Part shown: positions 17,410 to 45,272 of the stretch, one piece after another
Layout of the letters: every line of letters starts with the position of its first letter
Position numbering within the stretch: position 1 is the stretch's first letter
Assembly (NCBI GenBank): GCA_963847895.1
Contig: CAWKBO010000001.1
Span: 813,266 to 877,265 of the forward strand
Direction: 5' to 3'
Length of the DNA: 64,000 bases
Source of the DNA: an uncultured Gemmatimonadales bacterium
GTDB taxonomy: Bacteria > Gemmatimonadota > Gemmatimonadetes > Gemmatimonadales > GWC2-71-9
The notes under the pieces: model-generated
Database searches by the model: none
The model's input: only the letters and a program-made list of their open reading frames with translations
Told to the model about the DNA's origin: nothing
Program-made: the position numbers and the translations under genes

Positions 17410-17414
17410 CGTGC

Positions 17415-27230: not shown

Positions 27231-27402
27231 GACGGTTCTTCCGCTGGGCCGCGTTCATCTTGCGCTTCTTCTTCTCGCTCGGCTTTTCGTAGTGCCGATG
27301 CTTGCGAAGATCGGACAGGATGCCCGCCTTTTCGCACTTCTTCTTGAAGCGCTTCAGCGCCCGCTCGAAGCTCTCGTCATCGTGGATGATGACTTCCGAC
27401 AT
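27211..27402 (-). CDS. rpsU: 30S ribosomal protein S21
   Basis: [42 protein letters not shown]. Confidence 0.97.
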
Positions 27403-28186: not shown

Positions 28187-28537
28187 TCACGCCTCCACGT
28201 GGTTGGCCACCCACCGCGCGGAGGTCCCGCAGATCGAGCAAGCGGCCTTGCCGTCGCCATAGAGGACCATCTCCGCCTCCGCCTCGCAGGTGGGGCAGGT
28301 CGCCGTCACGGTACGGAGTCCCTCGGTCGGCAGGCCGAGCCGGACCAGCCGGGCAACCATCGAACTGGGTGCGGCCGCGCCGATCGGGCACATCGCCCCG
28401 GTGCATTGCTCGCCGATCTCGAGGCAGACCACTTCCTCGTCGTGCAGGGTGGCCTGGCCGTCGTGGGCGGGAGCCTCGGAGATCATCACCCGTACCTGCC
28501 GGTCACATGCGGAACAGAAGACCTTGGTGCCTTTCAT
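28187..28537 (-). CDS. Small Cys-rich putative metal-binding protein (116 aa)
   Basis: CSAC, C-x6-C-x4-CP, CPTC, CSIC (9 Cys); GGAGG SD; last gene of the kor-rnf cluster. Confidence 0.75.
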   Translation of the reverse strand: MKGTKVFCSACDRQVRVMISEAPAHDGQATLHDEEVVCLEIGEQCTGAMCPIGAAAPSSMVARLVRLGLPTEGLRTVTATCPTCEAEAEMVLYGDGKAACSICGTSARWVANHVEA

Positions 28538-28573
28538 CGGTCCCTCCGGGTCAGAACATCGGGCCTGTCGTGG

Positions 28574-29569
28574 TCAGGCAAGCGGCAACACCTCCGCGCC
28601 CGGCACCAGCCGCCGCACCAGTCGCTCGGCGGTGGCACCGCCGAGGCCGAAGACGGCCGTAGCCGCCGCATCGGCGTCGATACAGTGGTCGGCCTGCACG
28701 GTCACGCTGTGGAGCGGTCCGCTGCGCGGGACCGCCGTGGCGGGATCCATCAGGTGGTGGTAGCGGCGGCCGTGCCATGTGAAGTACTGGGCGTAGTCAC
28801 CCGAGGTGGCCACCGCCCGGTCGGCGATGTGGAGCGTGGTGGCGAGCACCCGTTCGTCGTCCGGCGAGCGGACGCCGACTGCCCACGGATCGCCATCCGG
28901 GGCGTGCCCCAGCGCGTGGAGGTCGCCCCCCACGTTGACGATCGCCTGGGTGACTCCATGATCGCGCAACGCGGCCACCGCGCGATCCACGCCGTGCCCC
29001 TTGGCGATTCCGCCGAGGTCGAGCCGCACCCGGGGATCGGTGAAACGCACCGCGGCGGTGCGGCCGGCATGGCTGAGATCCACGTGATGCCAGAATCCCC
29101 GCCCTGCCAGCGGTCGGACCGCCGTGGCCGGGGGCGGCTCGTGGCGATTGGCCACGTCCCAGAGCTCGATCACCGAGCCAAGCGCAGGGTCGAACCGTCC
29201 ATCGGTGGCCGAGGCCCACGACAGTGCCCGCTCGAGCACGCCGGCGGTCTCCGGCGCGATCGGGATGCCGTCGCGGGCTGCTCCAGCGTTGGCGCGGCCG
29301 ACGTCCGAGCCGGCACTGAAGCGGGTCATCTGCCGTTCCACGCGCCGCAGCTCGGCGATCGCCGCGTCGATCGCCGCCTCGGCGCGACGGGTGTCTCGAT
29401 CGACCACGGTGAGCTCGGCCATCGTCCCCATCAGCGGCACCGACCGCCGCACCACGAGGCGGCGCCTGGTGATCGCCAGCGGCAACGCGGCCAGCACGAA
29501 CACCCCGACCCCCACCCCGAGGAAGCGGCGACGGTCCAGACGCGGTCTCCCGTTCTCCTCAGCCGACAC
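28574..29569 (-). CDS. apbE: FAD:protein FMN transferase with Tat-like signal
   Basis: DRRRFL twin-Arg signal, LMGT, DLGGIAKG, VNVGGD, ATSGDY, HHLMDP, ADAAATA. GTG start at 29569, 6 nt after AAGGAGG. Confidence 0.92.
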   Translation of the reverse strand: MSAEENGRPRLDRRRFLGVGVGVFVLAALPLAITRRRLVVRRSVPLMGTMAELTVVDRDTRRAEAAIDAAIAELRRVERQMTRFSAGSDVGRANAGAARDGIPIAPETAGVLERALSWASATDGRFDPALGSVIELWDVANRHEPPPATAVRPLAGRGFWHHVDLSHAGRTAAVRFTDPRVRLDLGGIAKGHGVDRAVAALRDHGVTQAIVNVGGDLHALGHAPDGDPWAVGVRSPDDERVLATTLHIADRAVATSGDYAQYFTWHGRRYHHLMDPATAVPRSGPLHSVTVQADHCIDADAAATAVFGLGGATAERLVRRLVPGAEVLPLA

Positions 29570-29699
29570 GATCATCCTCCTTGCGATTGGCACAGCCACC
29601 GCCGCATCCCGGGCAATGACCGTCACAGCCCCGGCCACCGACGAGGCCGTAGGCCACGAACAGCAGGGCCATGGCACCGATCCCGATCGCGGGCGCCAT
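29559..29699 (-). CDS. 46-aa single-TM peptide with 4 Cys (NqrM-like / FeoB-associated Cys-rich-like)
   Basis: Manual translation MAPAIGIGAMALLFVAYGLVGGRGCDGHCPGCGGGCANRKEDDRVG. ATG overlaps the rnfA stop (TGATG) and the stop overlaps the apbE start; below the ORF-track size cutoff. Confidence 0.75.
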   Translation of the reverse strand: MAPAIGIGAMALLFVAYGLVGGRGCDGHCPGCGGGCANRKEDDRVG

Positions 29700-30274
29700 C
29701 AGCCCGCCCCGAGACCGGCGAAGCCCATGAAGGCAAGCGACAGGCAGGTGGCGATCATCAGTGTGAGCCCGAATCCGCGCGCCGAAGCGGGGATCTCCCC
29801 CAGCTCGGTGCGCTCACGAATCGAGGCCATCAGAACCAGCGCCAGGGTGAGTCCCATCCCCGCCCCGAGGGCGAACGCGAGCCCCTCGAGCAGGGTGTAG
29901 CCGCGGTTGGTCTGGAAGATCGCCAGTCCCAGGATCGCGCAGTTGGTGGTGATCAGCGGCAGGTAGATCCCCAGTGCCCGGAACAGCGCCGGCGAGATCT
30001 TCTTGATCGCCATCTCCACGATCTGCACCAACGACGCGATCACCACGATGAAGGCGATGATCCGCAGGAACGGCGCTGCCACCAGCACATAGGCGTTGAG
30101 CAGCCAGACCGCGAGCGCGGTGATCACCATCACGAAGATGTTGGCCATCCCCAGCCGCAACGCCGTGGCCACCCGGCCGGTGACACCGAAGAACGGGCAG
30201 AGCCCGAGGAACAGCGTCAGGGTGAAGTTGTTCACCAGCAGTGCGGAGATGAGGATCCACGAGAGGTTCTTCAT
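29699..30274 (-). CDS. rnfA: Rnf electron transport complex subunit A
   Basis: LVNNFTLTLFLGLCPFFG, LGIYLPLITTNCAILG. Confidence 0.95.
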   Translation of the reverse strand: MKNLSWILISALLVNNFTLTLFLGLCPFFGVTGRVATALRLGMANIFVMVITALAVWLLNAYVLVAAPFLRIIAFIVVIASLVQIVEMAIKKISPALFRALGIYLPLITTNCAILGLAIFQTNRGYTLLEGLAFALGAGMGLTLALVLMASIRERTELGEIPASARGFGLTLMIATCLSLAFMGFAGLGAG

Positions 30275-30918
30275 GCGGCCTCCAGCGCACGGCGCTTCGC
30301 CGTGCCGCGCCGACGGCGCTCGACCCGCCAGCCGAGCACCAGCATCAGGCCGCCGAGCGTGAGGAAGCCGCCGGGGGGAAGGACCATGATCACCCAGGGT
30401 TCGAAGCGCGGGCCGAGCAGGTCCACACCGAGCAGCGCCCCGGTGCCGAGGAGTTCGCGCACCGCACTCATCAGGACCAGGATGACCGTGAATCCCGCCG
30501 CGGTCCCCAACGCGTCGAGCGCGGAGCGGCCCACCGAATTGCGCGACGCGAACGCCTCGGCCCGGCCGAGAATCATGCAGTTGACCACGATCAGGGCCAC
30601 GAAGGGCCCAAGCTGCTTGTGCACGGTGGGCACCATGGCCTCGAGCAACATGTCGGCAATCGTCACGAAGGTGGCGATGATCAGCACGTAGGACGTGATC
30701 CGGACCTCGTGCGGGATCAGCTTCTTGAGCGATGCTACCAACACGTTGGAACCGAGGAGCACGAACGCGGTGGCTCCGGCCATCGCCAGGCCATTGGCCA
30801 CGCTGTTGGTGACCGCCAGCGTGGGGCAGAGCCCGAGCATCTGCACCACCACCGGATTCTCGCGCCAGACGCCCCGCAGGAAGTCGTCGAAGGTCGCCGG
30901 CTGGGCCGCGGCGGTCAT
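30271..30918 (-). CDS. rnfE: Rnf subunit E
   Basis: ENPVVVQMLGLCPTLAVT, LIVVNCMILGRAEAFA, LPPGGF. Confidence 0.95.
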   Translation of the reverse strand: MTAAAQPATFDDFLRGVWRENPVVVQMLGLCPTLAVTNSVANGLAMAGATAFVLLGSNVLVASLKKLIPHEVRITSYVLIIATFVTIADMLLEAMVPTVHKQLGPFVALIVVNCMILGRAEAFASRNSVGRSALDALGTAAGFTVILVLMSAVRELLGTGALLGVDLLGPRFEPWVIMVLPPGGFLTLGGLMLVLGWRVERRRRGTAKRRALEAA

Positions 30919-31580
30919 GGCGTCCCCCCCTGCAGGTAGGCCTGCAGCAACGGCTGCCATCGCGCCGTGGCGTTGTTGATGATCCGGAGCACCGCCCGCG
31001 ACGAGATCGTCGCCCCGGTGATCGTCTGCACCTGGTCGGAATCGGTGGCCGCCGCCTTGACGCCCCGCACCGGCGTCGTGACCCCAGTGAACTCGTCCAT
31101 GAATGCCGGCCGGTCGATCTTGTCGCCGAGCCCGGGCGTCTCCTTGTGACCCAGGATCTTCATCCCCAGCAGCATGCCGCTGGTGGGATCGATCCCGAAG
31201 ATCAGCGAGATCACGTCGGAAAACCCCGGCTCGGCTGCGGTCACCGCGGCACCGACGAGCGTGCCCCCGGCGTCATAGCCGAGAAACGCGCGCTCCAGGC
31301 CACGGCCATCGCTGCCCGCTGGCGGCGATGCCCGAAGCACCCCGGAATCGAGGTAGACGGTGTCGAGCCGGGCCGGCTCCTTGAGCACCTCGCGCACGGC
31401 GCTCTCGACCAGCGCTGCCCGGTGTGCCTCGATCGTCGGCAGCGTGCGGGCATAGACCGTGACGATGAGGCCACCGGCCAGTGCACCGGCGAGACCGAGG
31501 GTGGCGAGCAGGCGCCAGGACGAGACCTTCGGCGGCGTCTCGGTGCGCGGTGGTCCGCCGTGCTGGTGACCGTCGGTCAT
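30915..31580 (-). CDS. rnfG: Rnf subunit G (FMN-binding)
   Basis: N-terminal TM, HKETPGLG, ITGATISS flavinylation motif. Confidence 0.93.
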   Translation of the reverse strand: MTDGHQHGGPPRTETPPKVSSWRLLATLGLAGALAGGLIVTVYARTLPTIEAHRAALVESAVREVLKEPARLDTVYLDSGVLRASPPAGSDGRGLERAFLGYDAGGTLVGAAVTAAEPGFSDVISLIFGIDPTSGMLLGMKILGHKETPGLGDKIDRPAFMDEFTGVTTPVRGVKAAATDSDQVQTITGATISSRAVLRIINNATARWQPLLQAYLQGGTP

Positions 31581-32578
31581 CCCCGCACCCTCCGGCCGGT
31601 GCCGAAGACGCGCGGCTGGGTCGCACGATTGATGAACGGCACCACCGCGTTCATCAACAGGATCGCATACATCACGCCCTCGGGAAGCCCGCCCCAGATG
31701 CGGATCACCACCACCAGCACGCCGATGCCTGCACCGAAGACCCAGCGCCCTGCGTTGGTCACCGGCGAGGTGACCATGTCGGTGGCCATGTAGACCGCTC
31801 CCAACATGAGCCCACCCGAGAGCAGCATGAATGACGCCGATGGCCAGTCGGGATCGGCCATGTGCAGCACCGAGGCGAGGGCCGCCGTGGTGGCCAGCAC
31901 ACTCACCGGGATGCGCCAGTTGAGGTAGCCGCGCCAGGCCAGGTAGGCGCCGCCCAGCAGGATCACCACCGCGGCCGTCTCCCCGAGTGACCCGGCGGTT
32001 TTCCCGAGCAGGAGGTCAGGCACCGGCGTGAGCCGTCCCTCGAACTTGAGGAGCCCGAGAGGAGTCGCCTCGGTCAGTGCATCGGTGATCCCGTGCGTGA
32101 ACGGCAGTGCGAAGGTGCCGCCCGCCAACGTCCAGAAGCCCTGCCCCGGGCTCGGCCAGGTGGTGATCGCCACCGGGAACGCCGCCTGAAGGAAGGCACG
32201 ACCGACGAGTGCCGGGTTGAAGACGTTCTGGCCGAGTCCGCCGAAGACGATCTTGCCGATCCCGATCCCGACCATCCCGCCAAGCAGGGCCATCCAGAGC
32301 GGCATCCCGGCCGGCAGGCAGAGCCCGAGCAACAATCCGGTGATCATCGCCGAGCCATCGGCCAGCGTCCGCTCGTTCCCGAGGAATCGCTCGGCGAGCA
32401 GCGCGCCGACACTCGCGGCCGCGATCACCAACAGGGCACTGATGCCGAAAAACCATCCGGCCACCGCCACGACGGGCACCAGGCTCAGGACCACATGCCA
32501 CATGATCCTCGGGGTCGAGTCGGGTCCCTTGAGGTGAGGCGAGGCGGTGACGACCAGCGCGGGATCGGTCATCGTCAT
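31577..32578 (-). CDS. rnfD: Rnf subunit D
   Basis: SPHL, KIVFGGLGQNVFNPALVGRAFL, ATPL, GSLGET, MATDMVTSP, LPEGVMYAILLMN. Confidence 0.95.
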   Translation of the reverse strand: MTMTDPALVVTASPHLKGPDSTPRIMWHVVLSLVPVVAVAGWFFGISALLVIAAASVGALLAERFLGNERTLADGSAMITGLLLGLCLPAGMPLWMALLGGMVGIGIGKIVFGGLGQNVFNPALVGRAFLQAAFPVAITTWPSPGQGFWTLAGGTFALPFTHGITDALTEATPLGLLKFEGRLTPVPDLLLGKTAGSLGETAAVVILLGGAYLAWRGYLNWRIPVSVLATTAALASVLHMADPDWPSASFMLLSGGLMLGAVYMATDMVTSPVTNAGRWVFGAGIGVLVVVIRIWGGLPEGVMYAILLMNAVVPFINRATQPRVFGTGRRVRG

Positions 32579-33897
32579 GCCGCCCGGGCGCGCCGCAGCG
32601 CCGCCTTGCCGACCTGAAAGAGCTGCGAGAGCGGGATGTTCGACGGACAGACGAACGAACAGGAGCCACAGAGCATGCAATCGGCCAGGTGCGCCTCGGC
32701 CATCTCCTCGTAGCGGTTCACGCGAGCCAGGTCGCCGAGCAGGGACGGATTGAGAAACACCGGGCAGGCATCGAGGCAGCGACCGCAGTGAATGCAGGGA
32801 TAGACCTGCTCGCCCCGGGTCTCGTGCCGCGACAGCACCACTACCCCCGTGGTCCCCTTGGTCACTGGCGCATCGAGGTTGGCCTGGGCCAGCCCCATCA
32901 TCGGCCCGCCAGCCACCACCTCGGCGGCGTCGGCCGTGAGCCCGCCGCAATGCGCGAAGAGATCGCGCAGCCGGGTGCCGACCGGCACGATCAGGTTGGC
33001 CGGCTTGACCAGGCCGTGTCCGGTGACCGTCACGATCCGCTCGATCAGGGGCAGGCCGGTCTCGAACACTTCCGCGATCGCCGCCGCCGAGCCGACGTTC
33101 TGCACCACCACGCCGGCCGTCACCGGCAGCTTGCCCGAGGCCACCTCCACGCCGGTCACGGCATGGATCAGCATCTTCTCCGCTCCCTGCGGATACTTCA
33201 CGGTGAGCGGCAGGATCGACACGTCGAGGTCGGCCGGAATCGTCCGGGTCAGCGCCTCGACCGCGTCGGGCTTGTTGCGCTCGACGCCGATCACTGCCCT
33301 GGTCACCCCGAGCGTCTGCATCATCACCCGGATCCCGAAGTGCACCCGCTCGGGATACTCCACCATCGTGCGGTGATCCGAGGTGAGGTACGGCTCGCAC
33401 TCGGCGCCGTTGATGATCAGGGTGTGGACCTGGTGATCCCTTGGCGGCGCGAGCTTCACATGGGTGGGAAACCCGGCTCCCCCGAGCCCCACCACGCCCG
33501 CCTGCTGCACGGCCGCCACCACCTCCGCCGTGGAGAGCCCTTCCCAGCGGGCGATCAGCCGAGGTCGGGGCACCTGGGGTGCGTACCGATCGACCGCGAT
33601 GCGCACCGCGAGCGCCATCGAGCCGTCCGGGTGCGGGGCCAGCTCGATCGCGGTCACGATGCCCGCGGCCGAGGCGTGGATGGGCACCGAGATGTAGCCA
33701 TCGGCCTCTCCCACCTTGTCGCCTCGTTCGACCCGGTCGCCGACCTTCACGCAGAGCCGCGCCGGGGTGCCCGCGTGCTGCCGCAGCGGCAGCACGATCT
33801 CGTCGGGGAATGGCATCCGCCGGATCGGGAGCTGGTTGGTCAGCCCCTTGGCCTCGGGCGGGTGAACCCCGTGCCGGAATCCCGTGCCGAACCGCAT
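32575..33897 (-). CDS. rnfC: Rnf subunit C
   Basis: GVHPPE, GLGGAGFPTHVK, NGAECEPYLTSD, KYPQGAEK, GGPMMG and two CxxCxxCxxxCP motifs. Confidence 0.96.
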   Translation of the reverse strand: MRFGTGFRHGVHPPEAKGLTNQLPIRRMPFPDEIVLPLRQHAGTPARLCVKVGDRVERGDKVGEADGYISVPIHASAAGIVTAIELAPHPDGSMALAVRIAVDRYAPQVPRPRLIARWEGLSTAEVVAAVQQAGVVGLGGAGFPTHVKLAPPRDHQVHTLIINGAECEPYLTSDHRTMVEYPERVHFGIRVMMQTLGVTRAVIGVERNKPDAVEALTRTIPADLDVSILPLTVKYPQGAEKMLIHAVTGVEVASGKLPVTAGVVVQNVGSAAAIAEVFETGLPLIERIVTVTGHGLVKPANLIVPVGTRLRDLFAHCGGLTADAAEVVAGGPMMGLAQANLDAPVTKGTTGVVVLSRHETRGEQVYPCIHCGRCLDACPVFLNPSLLGDLARVNRYEEMAEAHLADCMLCGSCSFVCPSNIPLSQLFQVGKAALRRARAA

Positions 33898-36800
33898 CAG
33901 GCGAACCGCTCCGCCCGCTTGACCCACTTGGCGAGGTCCTTCTCGCTGGGATTGAGCGGCGTGCCGGGATGAATCAACGACACCGGACACCGTTCCGCGG
34001 CGAGCACCAGTTGCTGGAACGTCCCGGCGGCGGGGTCCTTGATGTACGCCTGCTTGTCGTCGTTGTAGGCGAACATCCGGTTGTTCAGGTTGGTGCACTC
34101 GTTGCACGTGGTGCAACGCATCGTGTCGATGTACGCCTCCAGCGCCAGGGCATCATCGTCGTCCACCTCCGCGCTCGCCGCCGCGGAGGCCGGAGCGGGA
34201 GCAGGAGTGGCAACCGCTGGCGCAGCGGCCGTGTCGGCGACCGATGCAACCGGCGCCGGCTCCGGGGCCGCGCTCACCGTGACATGGCCATTGCCCGCCA
34301 CTGGGGCGGTCGCGACACCGGGAAGCGAGGCAAGCAGTTCGGCGATCGCGCCGCCGCCGCCCTGCTTCACCAGTGACTCAACCAGGCGCCGGGCGATCTG
34401 GCGGGGATAGCTGGCCCGCATCGTCGCGAGTTCGGCCTCGAACTCGGCCCGGAGCGCCGCTTCCCGGCGTGCGTAGTCGGCGTCGAGGTCGCGCGACACG
34501 ATCTCGCGCACACTGTCGCCGACCTGGATCCCGGCGAGTTGACGCAATTGCGACCAGAACTCGAGCCGCTCCCGGGCGAGGGCGACGATCGTCTCCGAGA
34601 CCCGGATTCGCCGCAACCGGCGCTCGGCGTTCACACTGTGCACGAAGGGGATCTTCCCTGCCCGGTCCTCGGGTGACATCGCCAGGTAGTCGTGGAATGC
34701 CACCATGTCGTCGGTCCAGGCGTCCCGGGGCACCTCGGTGAATTGCGGCTTGAACCGGGACTCCGTCGCGGCCCAGTCGGCGATCGTGAGCGGCAGCGTC
34801 ATCACCTGCTCCACCCCGTCGTCGTCCACGTAGGTGAGCGCGTACTCCGGCCAGTCGGTGTCCACCGACGGGTTGCCCTCGAGGCTGAGGCAATCCGCCA
34901 GGGTCGATCCCCCGTCGGGATCGTAGGTCAGGAACGGGAACGCACGGCTCTCGAGCGACAGTCGGGCAGCGTGCTGGGCCCAGTCGTCGGCCAGGCCATG
35001 CTCCACCGGACATGGCGTGTAGATGTTGAACACGGCAGGCCGCCGCTTGCCGAGCCCCTTGAGCACCCCGGCCAGCAGGTGCGACGCCGCCGCCTGGGAC
35101 GACTGGTGAACGAACACGCCGCGGTGGGCGATGGCCAGCAACCCCAGCTCCTTGCGCACCTCGGTCTTCCCCGACTGCGCCTTCCCGAACGCCGACATGT
35201 CGGCGACCTGGCCGGTGTAACCGCTGGTGCAGGCCTGACCGCCGGTGTTCGAGTAGACCTGGGTATCGAGCACCACCACCCGGATCGGCTTCCCCGACGC
35301 GAGCAGGCGGGAGAGGTTCTGGAAACCGATGTCGAGCATCGCCCCGTCGCCGCCCATCGCCACCATCGGGGGACAGAGGGCGAACTCCTCGTCGGTGAAC
35401 TCCTGCCAGTCGAGCGAGTCGTGCTCACCCGCCACCGTGGCCGGCGGCTCGCCACCCTCGGCGAGCACTCGGGCGCGACGGACGACCAGGAAGCCGTCGG
35501 CCATCTTCCGCATCTGCGCCTCGAAGATTCCGATCGCGATCGATGGTGCGTCCTGGAAGAGGTGGTTCACCCACGGGAACGGATACGGGTTGTAGGGATA
35601 GGTGCTGCCCCAGACCGACGAACAGCCGGTGGAGTTGGCCATGCCCAGGAGCGCGCGGCCCTTGCCACTCGGTCCCTCGATATAGCGCCAGCGCAGGTCG
35701 CGCAGGTCGCGCAGCGAAGCGGTGAGGGCCGCCAGTTCCTGGTGGGCCTCGCTGTCGACCGGCACCGCCACGGCCGTTTCGGCCGCCGCGGCTGCCTCGA
35801 GATCGACTCCACGGCCCACCAGCTCCCGGGCCCGGCTCTCGAGCGCGGCAATGAGGCGGTCGAGCTCGAGCACGTGGCGCTTGACGCGCGGGGCCATCTG
35901 GGCGTGGATGGCTGAAACGATCAGGTGCACCGCCGTCTTCTCGCCGCAGCCCATGCAGGCCCCATCCCCGCCGACCATCGAGCGATAGGCCTCCTTCTTG
36001 AGCAGCAGCGTCGGCAGCACGCCGATGCCCTCGTCGATGTCGTGGATGTTGACGAAGCGGTCATCGGTGTCAGGGAGGCGGTTCCACAGCTCCCAGTTGC
36101 GCCGCAGGCGCGCCAGGATCTCCTGATCCTGACGGACCGTCACCAGTGCACCATCGGGACAGACCTCGACGCAAAGATTGCATCCCTTGCACGCTTCGGG
36201 ATTGATCGTCACCGACAGCAGCCCGCCGGCACCCTTCTGCTTCGCCTCGTGGGCCGTGAAATAGGGCGCGGTCCGGGCCAGCGGGAACTCGTCGAGCCGG
36301 GCCTGGATCACCACCTGCTCGGCGTCGACCGCCGTGCGCCGTTCGGCGTCCCAGGGCATCTTGTCGGCCACCGTGCGATAGGCCTGCGCAAACGCCTCGG
36401 CCACCGGTGGGGCGCCGTCTCGGGCAAGCACCTTCTGGGTCTCGCGGGCCCAGTGCTTGACCACCGGGCGCAGTCCCTCGAACCGCGCGCCATTGGTGGA
36501 GGCCCGAATCGCCGCGTTGAGGATCTCCTCCGGCGAGTTCACCAGTCCCGGGATCGCCGAATCGGGACACTGCACCCAGCACTGGGCGCAGCCGGTGCAA
36601 TTGGCCGCGACGAACGCCGGGACCTCGAGCCGGACTCCGCTCATGTCACGGATGCTGCTGGTCACCGCGGGGATCGCACTGATCGCGGCGAACGGGTCGG
36701 CGATGCCATCCTCGCCCAGCTTGCAGAGGGCGCAGACCTGTTCCCAGAAGCGTCCCTCGTGGCCGATCCCCTCGGCCGCGTGCGCCGCCTCCATGAGCAC

Positions 36801-38957
36801 CGGCATGTGCGGCACCTCGCCCGGCTCGTCCGGCTGGTCATCCACTTCCGGTGCGACCTCCCGGAGTTCGCCGTAGCCACGCCGGATGACCCGGAGGTTG
36901 TCGTCGACCACGTGGGCCCCGCGATGCCCGAACTTCTTCTGCAACTGCTTGGTGATCCCGGAGAAGAGCGCCTCCTCCGAGACGCCTTCCCGCTCGAGCA
37001 GCGGCGAGGTGCGGAAGAAGGCCCCCATGAACGCCGCACCCTGCATCCGGTAGCGCAGGTCGGCATCGGACGCCTCCGCCATCGCGATGGCGAAGGCGTC
37101 GAGGACGTGGAGCCGGATCTTCCGATCGCGGATGGTGCGGCGGGCCTGTGCAGGGAGCGTCTGCCAGAATTCCTCCGGCGTGAGCTCGCTCTGGATCACG
37201 AACACACCGCCCTCGGCAAGACCCTGCAACGGGTCGCTGTGGCGGAAGACGTTCGGGTCGGGCGACAGCACGACGTCGACATGGCGGAGTTCGCAGTTGA
37301 GCCGGATCGGCTCGTGCGCCAGCACGGCGTAGAAGGTCGTCGGCTGTCCCTTCTTCTCCGAGCCATACTTGGGATTGGCCTTGATATGGAGCCCGAAGAG
37401 CTCGAACGCCGTCATCGCGACGTTCTTCCCCATCGTGATCGCACCCCAACCGCCGACCGAGTGGATCCGCAGTGCGGTCGAGCCCGCCGGGAGAAGGTTC
37501 ACCGGCGCAGCAGACGCCAGCGAGAGTCCCGCCAGGTGCGGATAGCTGTCGGCCAACTGCTCCTGCCAGATCTGGAGCTTGGGCACCCGGGTGCCCTGGC
37601 GCAGGAAGTCGATGCCGAGATAGAACTGGCGCCGCCCTGCGCCGGTCGGCAGCATGTTTTCCACGGCCGCGATCAGGTCGCCCGGCTGGAGGTCGCGGCT
37701 CCCGAGCCCGAAGCAGCCGCTGTAGAAATCGGGCACCGCCTCGGGTCGCAGCGGGGTGACCCCCGGATGGGCTTCCGGGCTGCGGTGGTTCTCGACTCCC
37801 TGGGCCATCGCCGCGCGCAGCTCGCGCAGCAGCGGGGCATCGACGGCCAACGGCTGGTCGACCCGCTCGAGCACCACCACGGCGCGCTTGCCCGCGAGCA
37901 GGGCAGTCACCAGGTCGGCGGGGAACGGTCGGAACATCGTCAGGTTGAGCACCCCGACCTTGAGGCCACGCCGCTCACGCAGGTGGTCGACCACCGCCTC
38001 GGCGTTGGACACCACCGACCCCTGTCCCACGATCACGTACTCGGCGTCGTCGAGCCGGTATCCCGACGCCCTGGCGTAGTGCCGTCCCGTCAGCGTGGCG
38101 AACTCCTCGATCGCCTGGTCGGTGAGCGCCATGATGTGGTCGAAGTAGAACGGCCGCTGGGCCGCCACGCCCTGGGCGTAACTGTCCTGGTTCTGCACCG
38201 TGCCGAGCATGGCCGGGTAGTCGAGGTCGAACATCTCCGGGATGCGCCGGCGCCGCTCGCCGAACACCAGCCGCTGGGCGGGGGTCGGCGACGCGATCTG
38301 GTCCGCGGGATCGCCGAGATATGCCTTGATGAGCTCCCGTTCGGGAAGCCGCACCGACTCGATCACGTGGGAGGTAAGGAAGCCGTCCTGCGCCACCAGA
38401 CCGGGGTTGAGCGACAGCTCGGCCACCCGGTGGGCGATCAGGTTCAGGTCGGCGCACTCCTGGACATCCTTGGCGAAGAGCTGGAAGAACCCGGTGTCGT
38501 CGACGGCGTGGTAGTCGTCGTGGCCGGCATGCACATTGAGGGCGTGCTTGGTCATCGCCCTGGCCGCGACGTTGAGCACGTAGGTGAGGCGCTTGCCGAC
38601 TGCGGCGTAGAGCGACTCGTGCATGTACGCGATGCCCTGGCCGCTGGAGAAGTTCGTCGCCCGCAATCCGGCCATGCTCATCCCGGCGGTCACCGCGGCC
38701 GCAGCGTGCTCGCCCTCCGGTTCGAAGAAGAGCAGCCGCCTGCCGTTGACATTGCGTCGGCCATCGGCCACTGCGGCAGCCCAGCCTTCGCCCATCTGGG
38801 TCGAGGGCGTGATCGGGTAGGCCCCGGCCCCCTCACTCGCCGCGGTCTCCATCGCGACGACGGCTGCGCTCCCGTCCATCGCGCGCAGGCTGCCGGGAAA
38901 GCGGGGGGCGACCGGCTGCGTGCCGGCGCGCTTCGACATCCGTCCGGGGAACTTCAT
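33897..38957 (-). CDS. Single-chain pyruvate/2-oxoacid:ferredoxin oxidoreductase (NifJ/PFOR-like), 1686 aa, with an extra C-terminal ferredoxin domain
   Basis: YPITPST, domain III (HSVGGWGAITMGKN...YGSEKKG), CTGCAQCWVQCP and CKGCNLCVEVCP, GACMGCGE, TGCSSVWG, GGDGAMLDIG...DTQVYSNTGGQ (TPP), and C-terminal CTTCNEC...CP after an Ala/Pro linker. Confidence 0.9.
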   Translation of the reverse strand: MKFPGRMSKRAGTQPVAPRFPGSLRAMDGSAAVVAMETAASEGAGAYPITPSTQMGEGWAAAVADGRRNVNGRRLLFFEPEGEHAAAAVTAGMSMAGLRATNFSSGQGIAYMHESLYAAVGKRLTYVLNVAARAMTKHALNVHAGHDDYHAVDDTGFFQLFAKDVQECADLNLIAHRVAELSLNPGLVAQDGFLTSHVIESVRLPERELIKAYLGDPADQIASPTPAQRLVFGERRRRIPEMFDLDYPAMLGTVQNQDSYAQGVAAQRPFYFDHIMALTDQAIEEFATLTGRHYARASGYRLDDAEYVIVGQGSVVSNAEAVVDHLRERRGLKVGVLNLTMFRPFPADLVTALLAGKRAVVVLERVDQPLAVDAPLLRELRAAMAQGVENHRSPEAHPGVTPLRPEAVPDFYSGCFGLGSRDLQPGDLIAAVENMLPTGAGRRQFYLGIDFLRQGTRVPKLQIWQEQLADSYPHLAGLSLASAAPVNLLPAGSTALRIHSVGGWGAITMGKNVAMTAFELFGLHIKANPKYGSEKKGQPTTFYAVLAHEPIRLNCELRHVDVVLSPDPNVFRHSDPLQGLAEGGVFVIQSELTPEEFWQTLPAQARRTIRDRKIRLHVLDAFAIAMAEASDADLRYRMQGAAFMGAFFRTSPLLEREGVSEEALFSGITKQLQKKFGHRGAHVVDDNLRVIRRGYGELREVAPEVDDQPDEPGEVPHMPVLMEAAHAAEGIGHEGRFWEQVCALCKLGEDGIADPFAAISAIPAVTSSIRDMSGVRLEVPAFVAANCTGCAQCWVQCPDSAIPGLVNSPEEILNAAIRASTNGARFEGLRPVVKHWARETQKVLARDGAPPVAEAFAQAYRTVADKMPWDAERRTAVDAEQVVIQARLDEFPLARTAPYFTAHEAKQKGAGGLLSVTINPEACKGCNLCVEVCPDGALVTVRQDQEILARLRRNWELWNRLPDTDDRFVNIHDIDEGIGVLPTLLLKKEAYRSMVGGDGACMGCGEKTAVHLIVSAIHAQMAPRVKRHVLELDRLIAALESRARELVGRGVDLEAAAAAETAVAVPVDSEAHQELAALTASLRDLRDLRWRYIEGPSGKGRALLGMANSTGCSSVWGSTYPYNPYPFPWVNHLFQDAPSIAIGIFEAQMRKMADGFLVVRRARVLAEGGEPPATVAGEHDSLDWQEFTDEEFALCPPMVAMGGDGAMLDIGFQNLSRLLASGKPIRVVVLDTQVYSNTGGQACTSGYTGQVADMSAFGKAQSGKTEVRKELGLLAIAHRGVFVHQSSQAAASHLLAGVLKGLGKRRPAVFNIYTPCPVEHGLADDWAQHAARLSLESRAFPFLTYDPDGGSTLADCLSLEGNPSVDTDWPEYALTYVDDDGVEQVMTLPLTIADWAATESRFKPQFTEVPRDAWTDDMVAFHDYLAMSPEDRAGKIPFVHSVNAERRLRRIRVSETIVALARERLEFWSQLRQLAGIQVGDSVREIVSRDLDADYARREAALRAEFEAELATMRASYPRQIARRLVESLVKQGGGGAIAELLASLPGVATAPVAGNGHVTVSAAPEPAPVASVADTAAAPAVATPAPAPASAAASAEVDDDDALALEAYIDTMRCTTCNECTNLNNRMFAYNDDKQAYIKDPAAGTFQQLVLAAERCPVSLIHPGTPLNPSEKDLAKWVKRAERFA

Positions 38958-39793
38958 GCTGCCTCCGTCCCGGCGATCGCTGGCGCGCGGGTGAACTGTC
39001 CGCCCGTGAGCCACACGATCGCGTTGGTGGGACACCGCCCGACTGCACGCTGCTCGGCAGCGGCGGCCAGGTCTGGGTTGATCACGGCGACACCGGTCTC
39101 CACGCTGATGAGCCCCGGTGCGCCATCGACCACGCACTTGCCGCATGCGGTGCACGCCACGCGACACTGGCGCAACACCTCGTCACCGACCAGCAGGTTG
39201 CGACACTGCACCAGGAGCGGCTGGTCCCCGGGCAAGAGGGTGAACAGGTCCTTGGGGCATGCCTCGACACAGTCGCCACAGGCGGTGCAGGCCACCGGGT
39301 CCACCACCGGGAGCCCCACCTCGTTCATCGCGATCGCGCCGAAGTCACAGGAGCGCTCGCAATCGGCGAGTCCGAGACAGCCCCAGACGCAGCCCTTGCC
39401 GCCGGCGGCAACCGCCGAGGCGGCGCCGCAGGTGGCCACCCCCCGGTACTCCGCCTGTTGCACCGCCACGTCGCGACCCCCGGCGCAGCGCAACCGGGCC
39501 ACCCGCTTCACCGCGGAGCCGACCTCGACGCCGAGATAGTCCGCGATCTGGGAGCGGATCGCGTCGGTGGCCACGCTGCATTCCGCCACCTGGATCTCGC
39601 CGGCCACCGCCCGCTCGGCGAACGCCCTGCATCCGGGAAGGCCACACGCACCGCAATTGGCGCCGGGCAGGATCGCGCTGACCACGCCGATGCGCGGATC
39701 CTCCCACACCGCGAGCCGGGCGTTGGCCACCGCGATGAGGATGCCGAACACCAGGCCCACGCCACCAAGGACCAGGATCGCGTCGAGGACCAT
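38954..39793 (-). CDS. rnfB: Rnf subunit B (polyferredoxin)
   Basis: N-terminal TM, LPGANCGACGLPGC, GCLGLADCERSC, CTACGDCVEACP, CTACGKC. Confidence 0.92.
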   Translation of the reverse strand: MVLDAILVLGGVGLVFGILIAVANARLAVWEDPRIGVVSAILPGANCGACGLPGCRAFAERAVAGEIQVAECSVATDAIRSQIADYLGVEVGSAVKRVARLRCAGGRDVAVQQAEYRGVATCGAASAVAAGGKGCVWGCLGLADCERSCDFGAIAMNEVGLPVVDPVACTACGDCVEACPKDLFTLLPGDQPLLVQCRNLLVGDEVLRQCRVACTACGKCVVDGAPGLISVETGVAVINPDLAAAAEQRAVGRCPTNAIVWLTGGQFTRAPAIAGTEAA

Positions 39794-39806
39794 TGCTCCC
39801 CCTGCC

Positions 39807-40811
39807 TCAGCCGCCACCCGGCAACCCGGCCTGCCCGAGCAGCCAGTCGGTCACCCGGTCGATTGCCTGGTCGGCTCCGATCGCCGGAGTTCCGCCACCG
39901 AGCCGGTCCGGGACCGTGAATGGAGTCCGCGCCATGTCGGCGAGCAGCCGGAGGTCCTCCGCCATCTGCCAGGCACTCGTGCCGCCGAGGCCGCGCGACG
40001 GTGCCTCGGGCATGTGGCCGACCACGATCCGCTGCCACGGCTCGTTGCCGCGGCGCGGATCGTGGCTGAACGTGGCGCACCCCTCGGGGACCATGGCGAC
40101 GATCGCCGGGCCCTCGAACGCGGCGACCTGATCCAGCCCGCTGCCGTCGCTGCTCTGGACCACCAGCGTCCCGGGGGTGATGCAACGCACCAGGGGCGCG
40201 GGGGCCGAAGGACCGCGCACCACAAGCAGCAGCTTGGCGCGCCCGTCGGCGAAGTCGGTGAGTGCCCCCGAATGCAGATCCGCACCGTCGAGCAGCACGA
40301 TCAGCGGCGGGGCGAAGCGGCGTTCCACCCGGTTCCACTCGAGAAACGCGATGGGGTCGAGGAGTCGGTCGTGCTGGGCGGGCCGATAGGCCCCGGCCCG
40401 CACCAGTTCGGCCAGGACGATCGCCCCGAACGCCCGACCGGCCTCGCGCAATGCGGCGTCGATCGTCGCACCGAGCTTGCGACCGTCGCTCACCTCGGCG
40501 ATGAAGAGCTGCTCTCCCCGAACCGCCACGTCACGGAGCACCTCGACGGCACGCTCGATCGCGGCGATCGACGTCGGATCACCCTTGCCGACCGGCGGGA
40601 AGAGGGCGGCGAACCCGGCAGGATCGATCCGGCCTCGCGCGAAATCCCCCAGTTCCGCGGCGGCGCGGTCGCTGCGCAACTCGTCGCTGGCGCCGTGTGC
40701 CGCGAGGAACCCGTAGGCCTGATCGAGGGCGCCCTCGACCTCGGCCCGGAACTCGGCGATCGGCCGGGCCAGCGCTTCGAGGGCCACGGCAACCCGGTCG
40801 TCAGACGGCAT
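39807..40811 (-). CDS. Hypothetical protein (334 aa) inside the kor-rnf operon
   Basis: ATG at 40811 overlaps the korB end; plausible protein composition; no recognisable motif. Confidence 0.75.
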   Translation of the reverse strand: MPSDDRVAVALEALARPIAEFRAEVEGALDQAYGFLAAHGASDELRSDRAAAELGDFARGRIDPAGFAALFPPVGKGDPTSIAAIERAVEVLRDVAVRGEQLFIAEVSDGRKLGATIDAALREAGRAFGAIVLAELVRAGAYRPAQHDRLLDPIAFLEWNRVERRFAPPLIVLLDGADLHSGALTDFADGRAKLLLVVRGPSAPAPLVRCITPGTLVVQSSDGSGLDQVAAFEGPAIVAMVPEGCATFSHDPRRGNEPWQRIVVGHMPEAPSRGLGGTSAWQMAEDLRLLADMARTPFTVPDRLGGGTPAIGADQAIDRVTDWLLGQAGLPGGG

Positions 40812-41754
40812 AGCGATCAAGCTCCTCGTCGAGCAGCACGGCACGCTCGGCTGGGGTACGGGGGGTGGTGCGGCGGGTCTCCTCATAGCGCGGCCGGGTC
40901 GGATCGCGGAAGAACAGCCCGAGGTGGATCCGGTCGTCGGCCTCGGCGTAGTGGCGTGCCGCCGCCAGGTCGCGCGGGTCGTGGTGGATCTGCGTGGTGT
41001 AGAGCTTGGTGAGCTCGGGGACGACCACCCCGTCGTCGTGCACCAGCAACGCGATCCGCGACGGGTCCTGCACCGCCGCCTGGAACACATCCGGGGTGTA
41101 GACCGGGCAGCGCTGCAGGATCCGGACGAACGAGGTGCCCTTGTGCCGATAGGCCGCACGGAGCGTGGCATAGAGGTGCGCCGGTACCCACTCGGCCGTC
41201 TGGGCCACGAACGATGCGTTGGTCACGCCGAGGGAGACCGCCAGCGGATTGAGCGGCGGAAGGAAGCTGCCGCGCGGCTGGGTATTGGTCGGCAGGCCCT
41301 GGGGGGTGGTCGGCGAGGTCTGCTTCTTGGTCAGCCCGTAGATCCCGTTGTCGAGCAGCAGTGCAGTGATATCGAGATTGTACCGGAGTGCGTGCACCCA
41401 GTGCGCTGCGCCGATCGAAGTGCAATCCCCGTCGCCCATCACGGTGAACACGTGCAATTCGGGACGATGCAACTTGACCCCGGTCGACACCGGCAACGCC
41501 CGGCCGTGAATCCCGTGGAAGCCGTAGGTGCTCAGGTAGTGCGGGAAGCGGCTGGAACAGCCGATCCCGGAGACGAACACGGTCTCCTCCGGCGCGAGCT
41601 GCTCCGCAGCCAGCAACCGCTGCACCGCCGTCAGCACCGAGTGGTCTCCGCAACCGGGGCACCACCGGGCGCGCGCGCCGCCGTACTCTCCCATCTCGTA
41701 GCGTGCATCCTCGTCGCGGCTGAGGACCTGGAGCAGCTGGCATTGCAGACTCAT
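40801..41754 (-). CDS. korB: 2-oxoacid:ferredoxin oxidoreductase beta subunit
   Basis: WCPGCGD, SGIGCSSR, HGRALP, GDGD, NGIYGLTKKQTSPT. Confidence 0.92.
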   Translation of the reverse strand: MSLQCQLLQVLSRDEDARYEMGEYGGARARWCPGCGDHSVLTAVQRLLAAEQLAPEETVFVSGIGCSSRFPHYLSTYGFHGIHGRALPVSTGVKLHRPELHVFTVMGDGDCTSIGAAHWVHALRYNLDITALLLDNGIYGLTKKQTSPTTPQGLPTNTQPRGSFLPPLNPLAVSLGVTNASFVAQTAEWVPAHLYATLRAAYRHKGTSFVRILQRCPVYTPDVFQAAVQDPSRIALLVHDDGVVVPELTKLYTTQIHHDPRDLAAARHYAEADDRIHLGLFFRDPTRPRYEETRRTTPRTPAERAVLLDEELDRYAV

Positions 41755-43652
41755 GCGGCACCTCCGGCAGTCAGCCGTTCACGGATCACCGAGGCGATCA
41801 CGCCCGGTCGCAACGGTTCGCCCGGCACGCGGGTCCAGCTGTCGACGTCCACCAGGGTGGCGGCACGCAGCAGCCACGCGAGCTGGCCGCGACGGCGATT
41901 CTCCACAGTGATGTACGGCGCATCGGGTGGATCGGAATAGTTGATCTCCACGGCGACCACCTGACCGAAGCGGCGCATGATCTCGGTGAGCCCCGGCTCC
42001 AGCGGCGAGAGAAACCGCAGGTGCATCGAGGAGACCTTGTGCCCCTCGTCGCGCAGTCGGTCCACCGCTTCCTCGATCGCCCCCTTGGTGCTGCCCCAGC
42101 CGACCACCAGCAGGTCCCCGGTCGGGTCGCCGTGCACCGGGGGCGGCGCCAGCAGCGACTGGAGCACGGCCAGCTTGCGGCTCCGCATCGTGGATGAGTG
42201 CTGATGGATGCCCGACGAATACGCCACCTTGCTGCGCTCGTCATGCGACAGGCCGGTGAGGGTGAACATCCCGCCGGGCTGGCCGGGGACGAAGCGGCGC
42301 GACAATCCGGTCTCGCCATCCCAGGCGTAGGGATGACTCCCCTCGCCGATCGGGGCGAGGTCGATCGGGGCCGCCTGCCATCGGGTGTCGACGGTCGGCC
42401 GGTCGAACAGGGTGACTCCTGTCGCGAGGTTGGCGTCCGAGAGCACCATCACCACGGTGCGGAACTGTTCGGCGATCCGCCGGGCGGTGACCATCACGTG
42501 GAAGCACTCCTCGATGGTCGCTGGGGCGATGACCACATGCGGTGCATCGCCTGGCTGTCCGAACAGCGCGGCCAGCAGATCGGACTGTTCCACCTTGGTG
42601 GGCAGGCCGGTGCTCGGGCCGCCCCGCTGGACGTCCACCACCACCAGCGGCGTCTCGGTCATGATCGCGAGGCCGAGGAACTCGGTCTTGAGCGCCAGCC
42701 CGGGTCCCGACGTGACGGTGAACGCCACCTTCCCCGCATAGGAGGCGCCGATCGCCACCCCGGCGGCGGCAATTTCGTCCTCGGCCTGGTGCACCATCCC
42801 ACCGAATCGCTCCATCACCTCGCTCAGGTAGTGGGAGACCGAGGTGGCGGGGGTGATCGGGTACATCGCGCAGAGCTCCATCCCCGCGGCGATCGCCCCC
42901 ATCCCGAGGGCTTCATTGCCGTTCATCACCACCTGGGGTCGATCCACCGGGGCCAGGGCCACGTCGACCCGCAGGTCGAGGTGCTCCTCGGCCCAGCGAT
43001 GCCCCAGTTCCAGGAGTGCCACGTTGGTGTCGTAGACCTTCTCGCTCTTCTTGCGGAAGGCAATGGCGATCTGCTCCCGGATCTTGTCCATGTCGCGACC
43101 ATAGATCGCGGCGAGGATGCCGAGCGCGAACATGTTCTTCCCCTTGCGGGGATTGTCGACCAGCGTGAGGCACTGCTCCTGCATCGGCACCGGGATGATC
43201 CGGTAGGCTCGGCTCTCGAGTTCGGCCATCCCCGCCTGCCACGCCGCCACGATCGCCGGATCGTCCGACGTGGCCCACATGTCCTCCACCAGCAGGATCG
43301 CCTCGTCGGCGAGGGCGCCGAGTCGGTGGCGCGCCAGCAGCACCTGTTCGTTGAATGCGATCACCAGGTCGGTCTGATCACCCCAGTTGGTGACCGGTCC
43401 GGTGCCGATGCGGATCCGGTTGCCACTGGCACCCTCCGGAACGCGCGGTGGCGGCTGCACCTCCGCTGGGATGATCTCCACCGTCCAGACGCCATTGCCC
43501 ATCTTGGCGGACACCGCGGCGAAGATCTGGCCGCACTTCTGCGCACCCTCGCCCGAATCGGAGACGATCTCGATCGTGTGCTCGCGCAGGTGGAGTCGGG
43601 TCGGCGCCGCGACTGGCGCGCGGGCCACGACATCGGCAGTGGCTTCGGACAT
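41751..43652 (-). CDS. korA: 2-oxoacid:ferredoxin oxidoreductase alpha (fused gamma-alpha) subunit
   Basis: DSGEGAQ, GNEAL, YPITPAT, QAEDEIAA, TSGPGLALK, QRGGPSTGLPTKVEQSD. Confidence 0.92.
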   Translation of the reverse strand: MSEATADVVARAPVAAPTRLHLREHTIEIVSDSGEGAQKCGQIFAAVSAKMGNGVWTVEIIPAEVQPPPRVPEGASGNRIRIGTGPVTNWGDQTDLVIAFNEQVLLARHRLGALADEAILLVEDMWATSDDPAIVAAWQAGMAELESRAYRIIPVPMQEQCLTLVDNPRKGKNMFALGILAAIYGRDMDKIREQIAIAFRKKSEKVYDTNVALLELGHRWAEEHLDLRVDVALAPVDRPQVVMNGNEALGMGAIAAGMELCAMYPITPATSVSHYLSEVMERFGGMVHQAEDEIAAAGVAIGASYAGKVAFTVTSGPGLALKTEFLGLAIMTETPLVVVDVQRGGPSTGLPTKVEQSDLLAALFGQPGDAPHVVIAPATIEECFHVMVTARRIAEQFRTVVMVLSDANLATGVTLFDRPTVDTRWQAAPIDLAPIGEGSHPYAWDGETGLSRRFVPGQPGGMFTLTGLSHDERSKVAYSSGIHQHSSTMRSRKLAVLQSLLAPPPVHGDPTGDLLVVGWGSTKGAIEEAVDRLRDEGHKVSSMHLRFLSPLEPGLTEIMRRFGQVVAVEINYSDPPDAPYITVENRRRGQLAWLLRAATLVDVDSWTRVPGEPLRPGVIASVIRERLTAGGAA

Positions 43653-44235: not shown

Positions 44236-44520
44236 CTACTCTGCCTTCGGTAGCTCCGGGCGGTCGCGCATCTGCACCAGCAGTCGCTCGGAGAAATCGA
44301 GCCGCTCGTGCACCTGGTCCAGCTCCTCGCGCAGCTCGTTCACCTCGCTGCGCAGCGCCTCGAGCTCACCGACCCCCACGCCATCAAGCAGCCCGGCCCT
44401 GGCGCGCGTCTCGTCAAGTCGCATCCGGGCGGTCTTCTGCCAGGCGTTCGCCACGACCGCCACGATCGGGATCATGAGTGCAAGGATCGGGATGAACAGC
44501 ACCAGCGCGTGTCGGTCCAT
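44236..44520 (-). CDS. Small TM + coiled-coil hypothetical protein
   Basis: N-terminal TM (LVLFIPILALMIPIVAVV) and C-terminal ELDQVHERLDFSERLL coiled coil. Confidence 0.75.
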   Translation of the reverse strand: MDRHALVLFIPILALMIPIVAVVANAWQKTARMRLDETRARAGLLDGVGVGELEALRSEVNELREELDQVHERLDFSERLLVQMRDRPELPKAE

Positions 44521-44523
44521 GCC

Positions 44524-44757: not shown

Positions 44758-44829
44758 CGCCGGATTCCTCCTGCCGCGGGTGACAGAACCGGGACTGGCA
44801 CCGGTCAGACCACGAGTGTAGGGTTGGGC

Positions 44830-45213: not shown

Positions 45214-45272
45214 CCCTCGTGGCGGCCGCCCTCCCCCCCGGGCGCGCCCTGCACCAGTACCCAAGGGACAGC

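Follow-up and report, generated by a model that had tools for sequence, protein, structure and literature searches.

Why should a 5-kb gene for a pyruvate:ferredoxin oxidoreductase (PFOR) lie in the middle of an rnf operon, whose canonical form is a contiguous run of rnf genes with no enzyme gene inside? The question is raised by a 64,000-nucleotide stretch of DNA (the window) from an uncultured Gemmatimonadales bacterium (GenBank assembly GCA_963847895.1, contig CAWKBO010000001.1, forward-strand positions 813,266 to 877,265). At window positions 28187-43652, thirteen open reading frames (ORFs) follow one another on the minus strand in the order korA-korB-unk-rnfB-PFOR-rnfC-rnfD-rnfG-rnfE-rnfA-4-Cys peptide-apbE-9-Cys protein, and the gene for a giant PFOR (38957-33897) separates rnfB from rnfC. 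The answer toward which the comparative evidence tips is that this PFOR and the two-subunit KorAB would oxidise a pyruvate-like 2-oxoacid and 2-oxoglutarate, their electrons passing by way of a ferredoxin tethered to the PFOR to RnfB, with Rnf reducing NAD+ and pumping ions.

The ORFs are tightly packed: ten of the twelve junctions overlap, and the remaining two gaps are 13 and 36 bases (distances from korA to the 9-Cys gene: -4, -11, +13, -4, -1, -4, -4, -4, -4, -1, -17, +36, with starts set to the ATG at the overlap or to an ATG agreeing with homologues). The GC content is level over the whole block, at ~0.68-0.71. Protein identities come from Pfam and NCBIfam scans, and a family-less protein is one that has no match at E 0.01. 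An earlier sequence-only reading of the window had described thirteen same-strand genes in this order, nearly all joined by overlapping or abutting stop and start codons, with a giant PFOR gene between rnfB and rnfC and two different 2-oxoacid:ferredoxin oxidoreductases (OFORs) among the products; the layout is as described, and family, domain and motif matches point to the two enzymes, KorAB and the one-chain PFOR. The overlaps suggest a shared transcript and co-translation. A promoter/terminator scan of the block came out at chance level (1 against 0.7 expected; 3 against 4.1), and 98 upstream regions yielded no FNR or Rex box and one CRP-like match. The arrangement is no chance product, because the same gene order recurs in other genomes.

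Two 2-oxoacid oxidoreductases

The giant PFOR has the marks of the one-subunit PFOR/OFOR superfamily: domains I, II, III, V and VI, YPITP, the thiamine pyrophosphate (TPP) motif and 12 cluster Cys. Its Pfam content is POR_N, PFOR_II, POR, Fer4, TPP_enzyme_C and a C-terminal Fer4_13, and it aligns with 6cin and 1b0p at E ~1e-91. It falls outside the NifJ-type equivalog TIGR02176 (~1170 aa), scoring 413.8 bits against a cut-off of 911.35. With the homodimeric NifJ-type enzymes 6cin, 1b0p and 7plm it has in common the domain order I-VI, YPITP, the TPP motif and three [4Fe-4S] sets; unlike them it is ~500 aa longer, with insertions in domains V/VI, a C-terminal extension, a linker and a ferredoxin of its own. 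The giant PFOR is probably catalytically active, because YPITP, E83, R133, the 12 cluster Cys, GGDG and N1237, to which we assign presumed catalytic roles, are invariant in all 30 orthologues. T50, R133 and N1237 align with 6cin residues, and V142 and V1115 stand where 6cin has Ile, so that a substrate slightly larger than pyruvate is possible. The linker is 40-77 aa long in the 30 orthologues, with 31-61% Ala+Pro; the tail domain beyond it resembles ferredoxin I (1dax, E 2e-5), and its four Cys are invariant among the orthologues. A single-sequence AlphaFold model of residues 980-1686 is unusable (pLDDT 39.9). Neither a ferredoxin-tailed nor an Rnf-embedded PFOR figures among the architectures described in the available portion of a 2026 review (PMC13768988). 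The studied Magnetococcus PFOR, considered as a possible giant type, was rejected: that enzyme has two subunits.

KorAB has the make-up of a two-subunit 2-oxoglutarate:ferredoxin oxidoreductase, with an alpha subunit of domains III-I-II, a beta subunit of domain VI and no domain V, the domain that two-subunit enzymes are described as missing (PMC13768988). The closest Protein Data Bank match of KorA is 6n2n_A (E 3e-78), and its YPITP is intact. The KorB loop reads GIGCSSR as in 6n2n, which is of the 2-oxoglutarate type, unlike the GIGCSGK of 5b46/5b48; GIGCS.R is found in 52 of 53 KorB orthologues, and its Arg is presumably what confers the specificity. The motif thus points to 2-oxoglutarate as the substrate of KorAB. 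The subunit plan, KorA III-I-II plus KorB VI with one cluster, is that of the two-subunit 6n2n/6n2o and of the archaeal OFOR 5b46/5b48; unlike those enzymes, KorAB is encoded inside an rnf operon, with a pseudo-domain-VI gene overlapping korB.

Dead PFORs in sister operons

What makes the arrangement interpretable is a sister form of the operon. A gene for a protein of ~830 aa, psB (P0277), is matched over its full length in 10 of the 351 genomes of Gammaproteobacteria; all ten regions read korA-korB-psB, and in nine of them rnfB and a degenerate PFOR (PFOR*) come next, the tenth ending at a contig edge. Profile comparison makes psB homologous to PFOR 995-1686 (prob 100). It bears a ferredoxin tail in 9/10, the frame in L285 being split before the tail. 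The tethered ferredoxin is thus found on one partner or the other, on PFOR in the window type and on psB in the sister type.

The PFOR* set comprises 11 sequences (8 from Gammaproteobacteria, 1 from a metagenome contig and 2 from Acidobacteriota), every one of which lacks YPITP, E83, GGDG, NTGGQ, the four proximal Cys and the ferredoxin tail. The domain-V Cys persist, all eight in nine sequences and four of the eight in two, and dN/dS, the ratio of nonsynonymous to synonymous substitution rates, is 0.09-0.43 (4 pairs), which is purifying selection. By its motifs PFOR* is catalytically dead, with its relay clusters kept. The proposal that the dead PFORs had lost the substrate Arg was rejected; R133 is kept in 8/11. 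An acidobacteriotal genome, G002 (L245:5260-14254, also L246 and L247), has an rnf operon in which two degenerate PFORs flank rnfB, one of 1293 aa with a ferredoxin tail and one of 1417 aa with four domain-V Cys. L247 has frame breaks.

Other layouts widen the family. A third one, rnfB-active PFOR-rnfCDGEA without korAB or unk, occurs at L262, L291, L292, L294, L295 and L297, and in three of these cases the same genome also has a psB operon. A distant PFOR clade (53 loci, in Vibrio, Photobacterium, Psychromonas, Accumulibacter, Magnetococcales, Cohaesibacter and SAR324; ~35-47% identity) keeps the C-terminal four-Cys domain in the 8 sequences aligned and has a substrate loop VM against VH in the window PFOR. 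Its PFOR genes are followed by one for a fused Fer4_20/Pyr_redox_2/DHODB_Fe-S protein in 36/42 loci, and by rnfC in 0/42. This fusion, which we take to be Nfn-like, is mostly 915-1000 aa long, with PRK12779 above cut-off in L214 (locus 9782-17532). The giant PFOR family would thus appear to travel with a ferredoxin:NAD(P) partner, because the distant clade has the Nfn-like fusion in place of rnfC.

Several further neighbours were met. At L283:4122-6170, the dead PFOR is separated from rnfC by sucC and sucD, with same-size ORFs in L285 and L286 (identity from L283 only). In several of the dead-PFOR operons a NuoF/HoxF-like gene is found directly upstream of korA (L286:16751-18010; similar in L287, L288 and L289). 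Genome G511 (L296:4128-11070) carries Nfn-like pieces ahead of korA (1031 aa), korB and a 972-aa psB-like gene; the 20 kb read there contain no rnf gene. Pyruvate phosphate dikinase directly precedes an Nfn-type PFOR at L163:7022-9808, and phosphoenolpyruvate (PEP) synthase directly follows the rnf-PFOR operon at L294:16189-18615; the dikinase and PEP synthase neighbours are a hint of pyruvate as substrate and of gluconeogenic use.

A pseudo-domain VI beside KorAB

The protein encoded by unk is the member of the block whose identity is least evident. BLASTP of unk against PFOR gives nothing significant (best E 0.65). Its profile aligns with PFOR 1147-1365 (hhalign prob 65, E 6e-5) and more strongly with psB (prob 95.6, E 1e-8). 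With an AF2 model of unk (pLDDT 90.7), the top 12 Foldseek rows are all PFOR chains, none at E<=1e-3, and rank 1 in VIA is 6cin_A 809-1170, which is domain VI (Z 8.1, root-mean-square deviation 6.5, 190 aligned). Profile and modest fold scores place unk with OFOR domain VI, and what is missing from it is the TPP motif and the four proximal-cluster Cys; among 48 unk sequences there is no invariant Cys and no GDG/TPP motif. On these comparisons unk is a pseudo-domain VI, a derivative of PFOR domain VI without cofactor motifs. It is under purifying selection (dN/dS 0.11-0.23, 3 pairs).

unk holds the same operon slot as psB and groups with it in a quick 37-row tree (SH-aLRT 99); with a threshold of E 1e-3, the unk profile did not pick up the long pseudo-subunit in G002. 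It is probably a shrunken orthologue of psB, which likely makes the window operon and the dead-PFOR operons versions of a single machine; this link is a new result. Its role would be that of an adaptor for KorAB. An NTPase identity was rejected, all Atlas leads lying below 0.9, and the conserved N-terminal MPS(D/E) was discounted as a signal because it overlaps the conserved end of korB.

Conservation and spread of the block

The recurrence of the block was counted over 226 loci around PFOR relatives, 173 of them with at least 50% PFOR identity and 53 in the distant clade. The set leaves out the own-genome loci L146-L158, contains three loci that repeat a contig already included, and is biased to best matches and kin; flank counts cover only loci with enough flanking DNA. 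At >=50% identity, rnfB lies directly upstream of PFOR in 151/153 loci and rnfC directly downstream in 110/120, with unk upstream in 142/146 and korA in 123/127. unk and korB occur together in 132 of 136 loci, neither is there in 4, and one alone in 0. The full korAB-unk-rnfB-PFOR order is found, going by record titles, in Gemmatimonadota, Planctomycetota, Acidobacteriota, Rokubacteria, Myxococcota and Gammaproteobacteria, the closest relatives being Gemmatimonadales (88% PFOR identity). Lack of conservation of rnfB-PFOR-rnfC in other genomes was what the sequence-only reading had named as fatal to its proposal; the order is strongly conserved.

Within the phylum the block is patchy. Among 200 other genomes, unk is found in 30, PFOR in 29, a korA orthologue in 29 and rnfD in 38; 27 have all four, and in three more, with short or cut contigs, one or two are missing. 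A distant family accounts for 9 of the 38 rnfD genomes, and its one region read has a plain rnfCDGEA; outside that family, rnfD is confined to genomes that carry unk (29/29). Within the genus, 2/8 genomes have the block. In the complete genome G136 (L241:7754-12583), a PFOR truncated near residue 1518 lies right beside the 9-Cys gene, and rnfD, the korA orthologue and unk were not found in that genome; the truncated PFOR is apparently a deletion remnant. The flanks are not conserved, the largest flanking cluster covering 10/115 loci. The block is patchy and is gained or lost whole, moving as a unit, because its markers co-occur or are missing together over the 200 genomes. The anaerobic energy-conserving route that the sequence-only reading suggested for the lineage would be accessory rather than lineage-wide (30/200, ~15%), and a phylum-wide block was rejected on that count. 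unk was not found in four incomplete genomes and one plasmid record that have PFOR-Rnf with no korAB-unk alongside. A Persicobacter plasmid (L238:8977-21003) has PFOR-rnfCDGEA with rnfB after rnfA; korAB and unk were not found there.

A proposed wired route from 2-oxoacids to Rnf

Three patterns call for explanation: a dead PFOR kept by rnfB, a pseudo-subunit occurring only with korAB, and a ferredoxin tail on either one. The simplest reading is that they reflect one assembly. In it the substrates oxidised by the giant PFOR and KorAB would be pyruvate, or some small 2-oxoacid like it, and 2-oxoglutarate. The PFOR body would dock on Rnf, because dead PFORs with only domain-V clusters are retained in this slot of the sister operons; the unk pseudo-subunit would hold KorAB, itself without a ferredoxin domain, at this docking site; and one swinging ferredoxin arm would serve both enzymes and deliver electrons to RnfB. 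Rnf in turn would reduce NAD+ and pump ions. The pyruvate couple lies well below the NAD+ couple, and therefore its oxidation can drive pumping. Values of -515 to -540 mV are given for it (PMC13768988). Run in this direction, the module would offer a way, at low oxygen and with ion pumping, around the pyruvate and 2-oxoglutarate dehydrogenases of the host genome (G000; 3.39 Mb, 83% complete), which has two E1-alpha genes, SucA and a fused E1. The genome also encodes four heme-copper oxidases, one of cbb3 type (types read from sequences), two NiFe-hydrogenase-like loci and a NosZ-like gene that scores under the cut-off. Of its two ATP synthase c/K-type genes (C8:54409 and C9:459735), one reads as F-type-like and the other as V/A-type-like.

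That both enzymes might form a membrane-attached complex with Rnf had already been proposed from the window itself. The tethered ferredoxin, the restriction of unk to korAB operons and the keeping of dead PFORs now lend that proposal comparative evidence; the complex itself we infer. In its fullest form it would be a membrane-attached "2-oxoacid dehydrogenase-Rnf" supercomplex, with PFOR as a seventh Rnf subunit, unk clamping KorAB, and the single ferredoxin arm bypassing the free pool; the window operon would then be the minimal, doubly active form, and PFOR would be dead in Gammaproteobacteria. For this fuller picture we put the chances somewhat short of even.

There is a good deal to set on the other side of the scale. 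A dicluster ferredoxin of 87 aa is encoded in the genome as a free protein, and there is a third KorA-like gene; the notion of a genome without free ferredoxin had to be rejected on account of the former. The loci counted are kin, not independent, the cases without unk are four loci only, and in 10/120 loci rnfC does not directly follow PFOR, lying 7-10 kb on in four. By fold, unk gives a modest match (Foldseek E>1e-3, TM 0.22-0.27, with a VIA Z tied with unrelated helical bundles), and the quick unk/psB tree carries a long-branch warning, its careful search being unfinished. In G002, neither the active giant PFOR (L168) nor the korAB orthologue (L240) is located with rnf. The substrates of both enzymes are assigned from motifs alone, and PFORs are described as weakly partner-specific in vitro (PMC13768988).

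The direction of flow is the first thing that a rival may dispute. With the same wiring reversed, Rnf would spend the ion gradient to pass electrons from NADH to the tethered ferredoxin for reductive carboxylation of acetyl-CoA and succinyl-CoA, in the service of anaplerosis, acetate assimilation or a reversed segment of the tricarboxylic acid (TCA) cycle. PFOR and Rnf are both reversible, NAD-linked dehydrogenases are present, the four oxidases could supply the gradient, and electrons of low potential would be protected from oxygen on a tethered carrier. The sucCD pair within one of the sister operons is compatible with either direction. The tail of PFOR, on the other hand, resembles ferredoxin I, a fairly high-potential acceptor of PFOR. 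A search of the 83% complete genome gave no ATP citrate lyase match, its control search being also blank, and no TCA or carbon-fixation gene is recognised among the conserved flanks. In a Riftia symbiont, moreover, KorA(3), KorB(3) and a "PFOR-like ferredoxin" fall as genes of the reverse TCA (rTCA) cycle rise (PMC11636981). We consider reverse operation unlikely and cautiously favour oxidation under low oxygen.

The remaining rivals dispute the wiring. The plainer of them takes the block for an ordinary co-regulated operon in which soluble PFOR and KorAB reduce a free-ferredoxin pool used by Rnf, the tail and unk doing no more than stabilise, help assembly or protect against oxygen. The chain from PFOR through ferredoxin to Rnf is textbook knowledge (PMC12174285), O2-protective C-terminal extensions are known (domain VII; PMC13768988), the 87-aa ferredoxin is there to carry the electrons, and the gene order is broken in the ten loci already mentioned. 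What a free pool leaves unexplained is why dead PFORs of ~1300-1600 aa, with relay clusters, are held between rnfB and rnfC under purifying selection, why the ferredoxin tail is found on either PFOR or psB, and why the presence of unk follows that of korAB in every one of 136 loci; we regard it as quite unlikely. A halfway position would have only PFOR wired through its tail, with unk either vestigial or devoted to stabilising or regulating KorAB, and with KorAB using free ferredoxin. In the korAB-less layout rnfB-PFOR-rnfC exists by itself, unk has lost the ferredoxin tail and extension that psB keeps, and it is the fastest-changing core gene (32-76% identity). Yet unk is full-length, is constrained at the dN/dS given above, overlaps korB, and descends, by the comparisons made, from PFOR rather than from KorB; we regard this position as very improbable.

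Precedents and meaning

Known parts make up a real, conserved arrangement that has hardly been described in publications. The open-access literature yielded no account of the korAB-unk-rnfB-PFOR-rnfC block (subscription papers lie outside that search), and the available portions of PMC12174285, PMC12337175, PMC6315080, PMC10176493, PMC4949241 and PMC1779556 describe no such block. The nearest precedent is rnf2 (rnfBCDGEA) of the Solemya velum symbiont, in which rnfB2 and rnfC2 have one or more PFOR genes between them, and for which the authors suggest pyruvate as the Rnf donor (PMC4287430, 2014). The rnf order is the same as in the window, and so is the position of PFOR; the account, in the part available, amounts to one sentence in which korAB, a pseudo-subunit and a tethered ferredoxin are not mentioned, and the two loci are compared by description only. 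With its enzyme gene inside, the window operon departs from the canonical rnf layout; a passing mention of rnfB-PFOR-rnfC dates from 2014 (PMC4287430).

In Ca. Endoriftia persephone, the Riftia symbiont just referred to, KorA(3), KorB(3) and a "PFOR-like ferredoxin" bear the consecutive tags RS16060/16065/16070, with log fold changes of -2.62, -2.57 and -1.91 (PMC11636981). The order korA-korB-PFOR-like gene is that of the block, and the authors, in the portion available, give no mechanism. By description, which is the only basis of the comparison, this trio is probably of the dead-PFOR sister type and not of the window type.

Rnf is described as fed by a shared pool of free ferredoxin (PMC12174285). 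If the module is hard-wired instead, bacteria that respire with oxygen as well would have in it an ion-pumping stand-in for pyruvate dehydrogenase and 2-oxoglutarate dehydrogenase or, if hard-wired and reversed, an insulated unit for CO2 fixation. A pseudo-enzyme scaffold would be added to both the PFOR and the Rnf families, and the annotations "PFOR" and "ferredoxin" at such loci would mislead metabolic reconstructions. The module is directly testable because a cultured, named organism, Gemmatirosa kalamazoonensis KBS708, carries the operon (plasmid 1, L239).

Rnf subunits and small accessory genes

The coordinates of the block are collected in Table 1. All six Rnf subunits, RnfA, B, C, D, E and G, are encoded. 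RnfB matches 9eri_B (E 8e-58) and 7zc6_B (E 4e-47). With the Rnf complexes 9eri, 7zc6 and 8ahx the block has in common the six subunits, the long RnfB and an adjoining ApbE; unlike the block, those complexes are fed at RnfB by free ferredoxin, and no enzyme subunit is described for them in the available part of the source (PMC12174285). ApbE would flavinylate RnfD and RnfG, a role assigned after the same source (PMC12174285).

Table 1. Genes of the block and parts of the PFOR, in window coordinates
Feature	Position	Strand	Description
korA	41751..43652	-	633 aa; alpha subunit, domains III-I-II; TIGR03710 533.6 bits > cut-off 482.75
korB	40801..41754	-	317 aa; beta subunit, domain VI; WCPGCG, GDGD and cluster Cys kept
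unk	39807..40811	-	334 aa; no family match at E 0.01; apparent degenerate relative of PFOR TPP domain
rnfB	38954..39793	-	279 aa; long polyferredoxin type, 20 Cys, N-terminal hydrophobic helix; FeS and Fer4 families
PFOR	33897..38957	-	1686 aa, one chain; domains I-VI plus helical insertions, C-terminal extension, linker, ferredoxin
PFOR Ala/Pro-rich linker	34143..34325	-	about residues 1545-1605
PFOR tethered single-cluster ferredoxin	33897..34142	-	C1615, C1618, C1621, C1657; Fer4_13 above cut-off
rnfC	32575..33897	-	440 aa; TIGR01945 515.8 > 245.95
rnfD	31577..32578	-	333 aa; TIGR01946 323.3 > 207.05; 7zc6_D E 7e-69
rnfG	30915..31580	-	221 aa; FMN_bind above cut-off; TIGR01947 101.2 vs 102, just under
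rnfE	30271..30918	-	215 aa; TIGR01948 220.9 > 213.4
rnfA	29699..30274	-	191 aa; Rnf-Nqr family; TIGR01943 216.4 vs 229.3, just under
4-Cys peptide	29559..29699	-	46 aa; hydrophobic stretch and C-x3-C-x2-C-x3-C
apbE	28574..29575	-	333 aa; flavin transferase; PF02424 E 5e-75
9-Cys protein	28187..28537	-	116 aa; no family at E 0.01; Zn-ribbon matches weak, below cut-off

Between rnfA and apbE, a four-Cys motif is encoded in 34 of 59 testable loci. The peptide in the window has no Pfam or NCBIfam match at E 10, and thus falls outside NqrM/DUF539; its position beside apbE and its Cys content suggest that it is possibly an NqrM-like Fe-S maturation factor, NqrM adjoining apbE in nqr operons (PMC12174285). 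The 9-Cys protein, at most zinc-ribbon-like, falls in "hypothetical" Atlas clusters in which Gemmatimonadota are commonest, and its gene is accessory, being present in part of the loci only. A second, divergent 9-Cys gene lies upstream of korA at L079:4462 and L097:4474. At L079 the block is followed by another rnfBCDG set (21000-25166), and an extra insert of 1.3-1.7 kb is found inside the rnf genes of L014, L027 and L141 (rnfD-rnfG) and of L097 (rnfC-rnfD).

The block itself lies between rpsU-, yqeY-, mutS2- and dnaG-like housekeeping genes and, on the other strand, a TolC/RND heavy-metal efflux-like set (neighbouring stretches 22598-27337 and 44236-50897), all named by reading translations.

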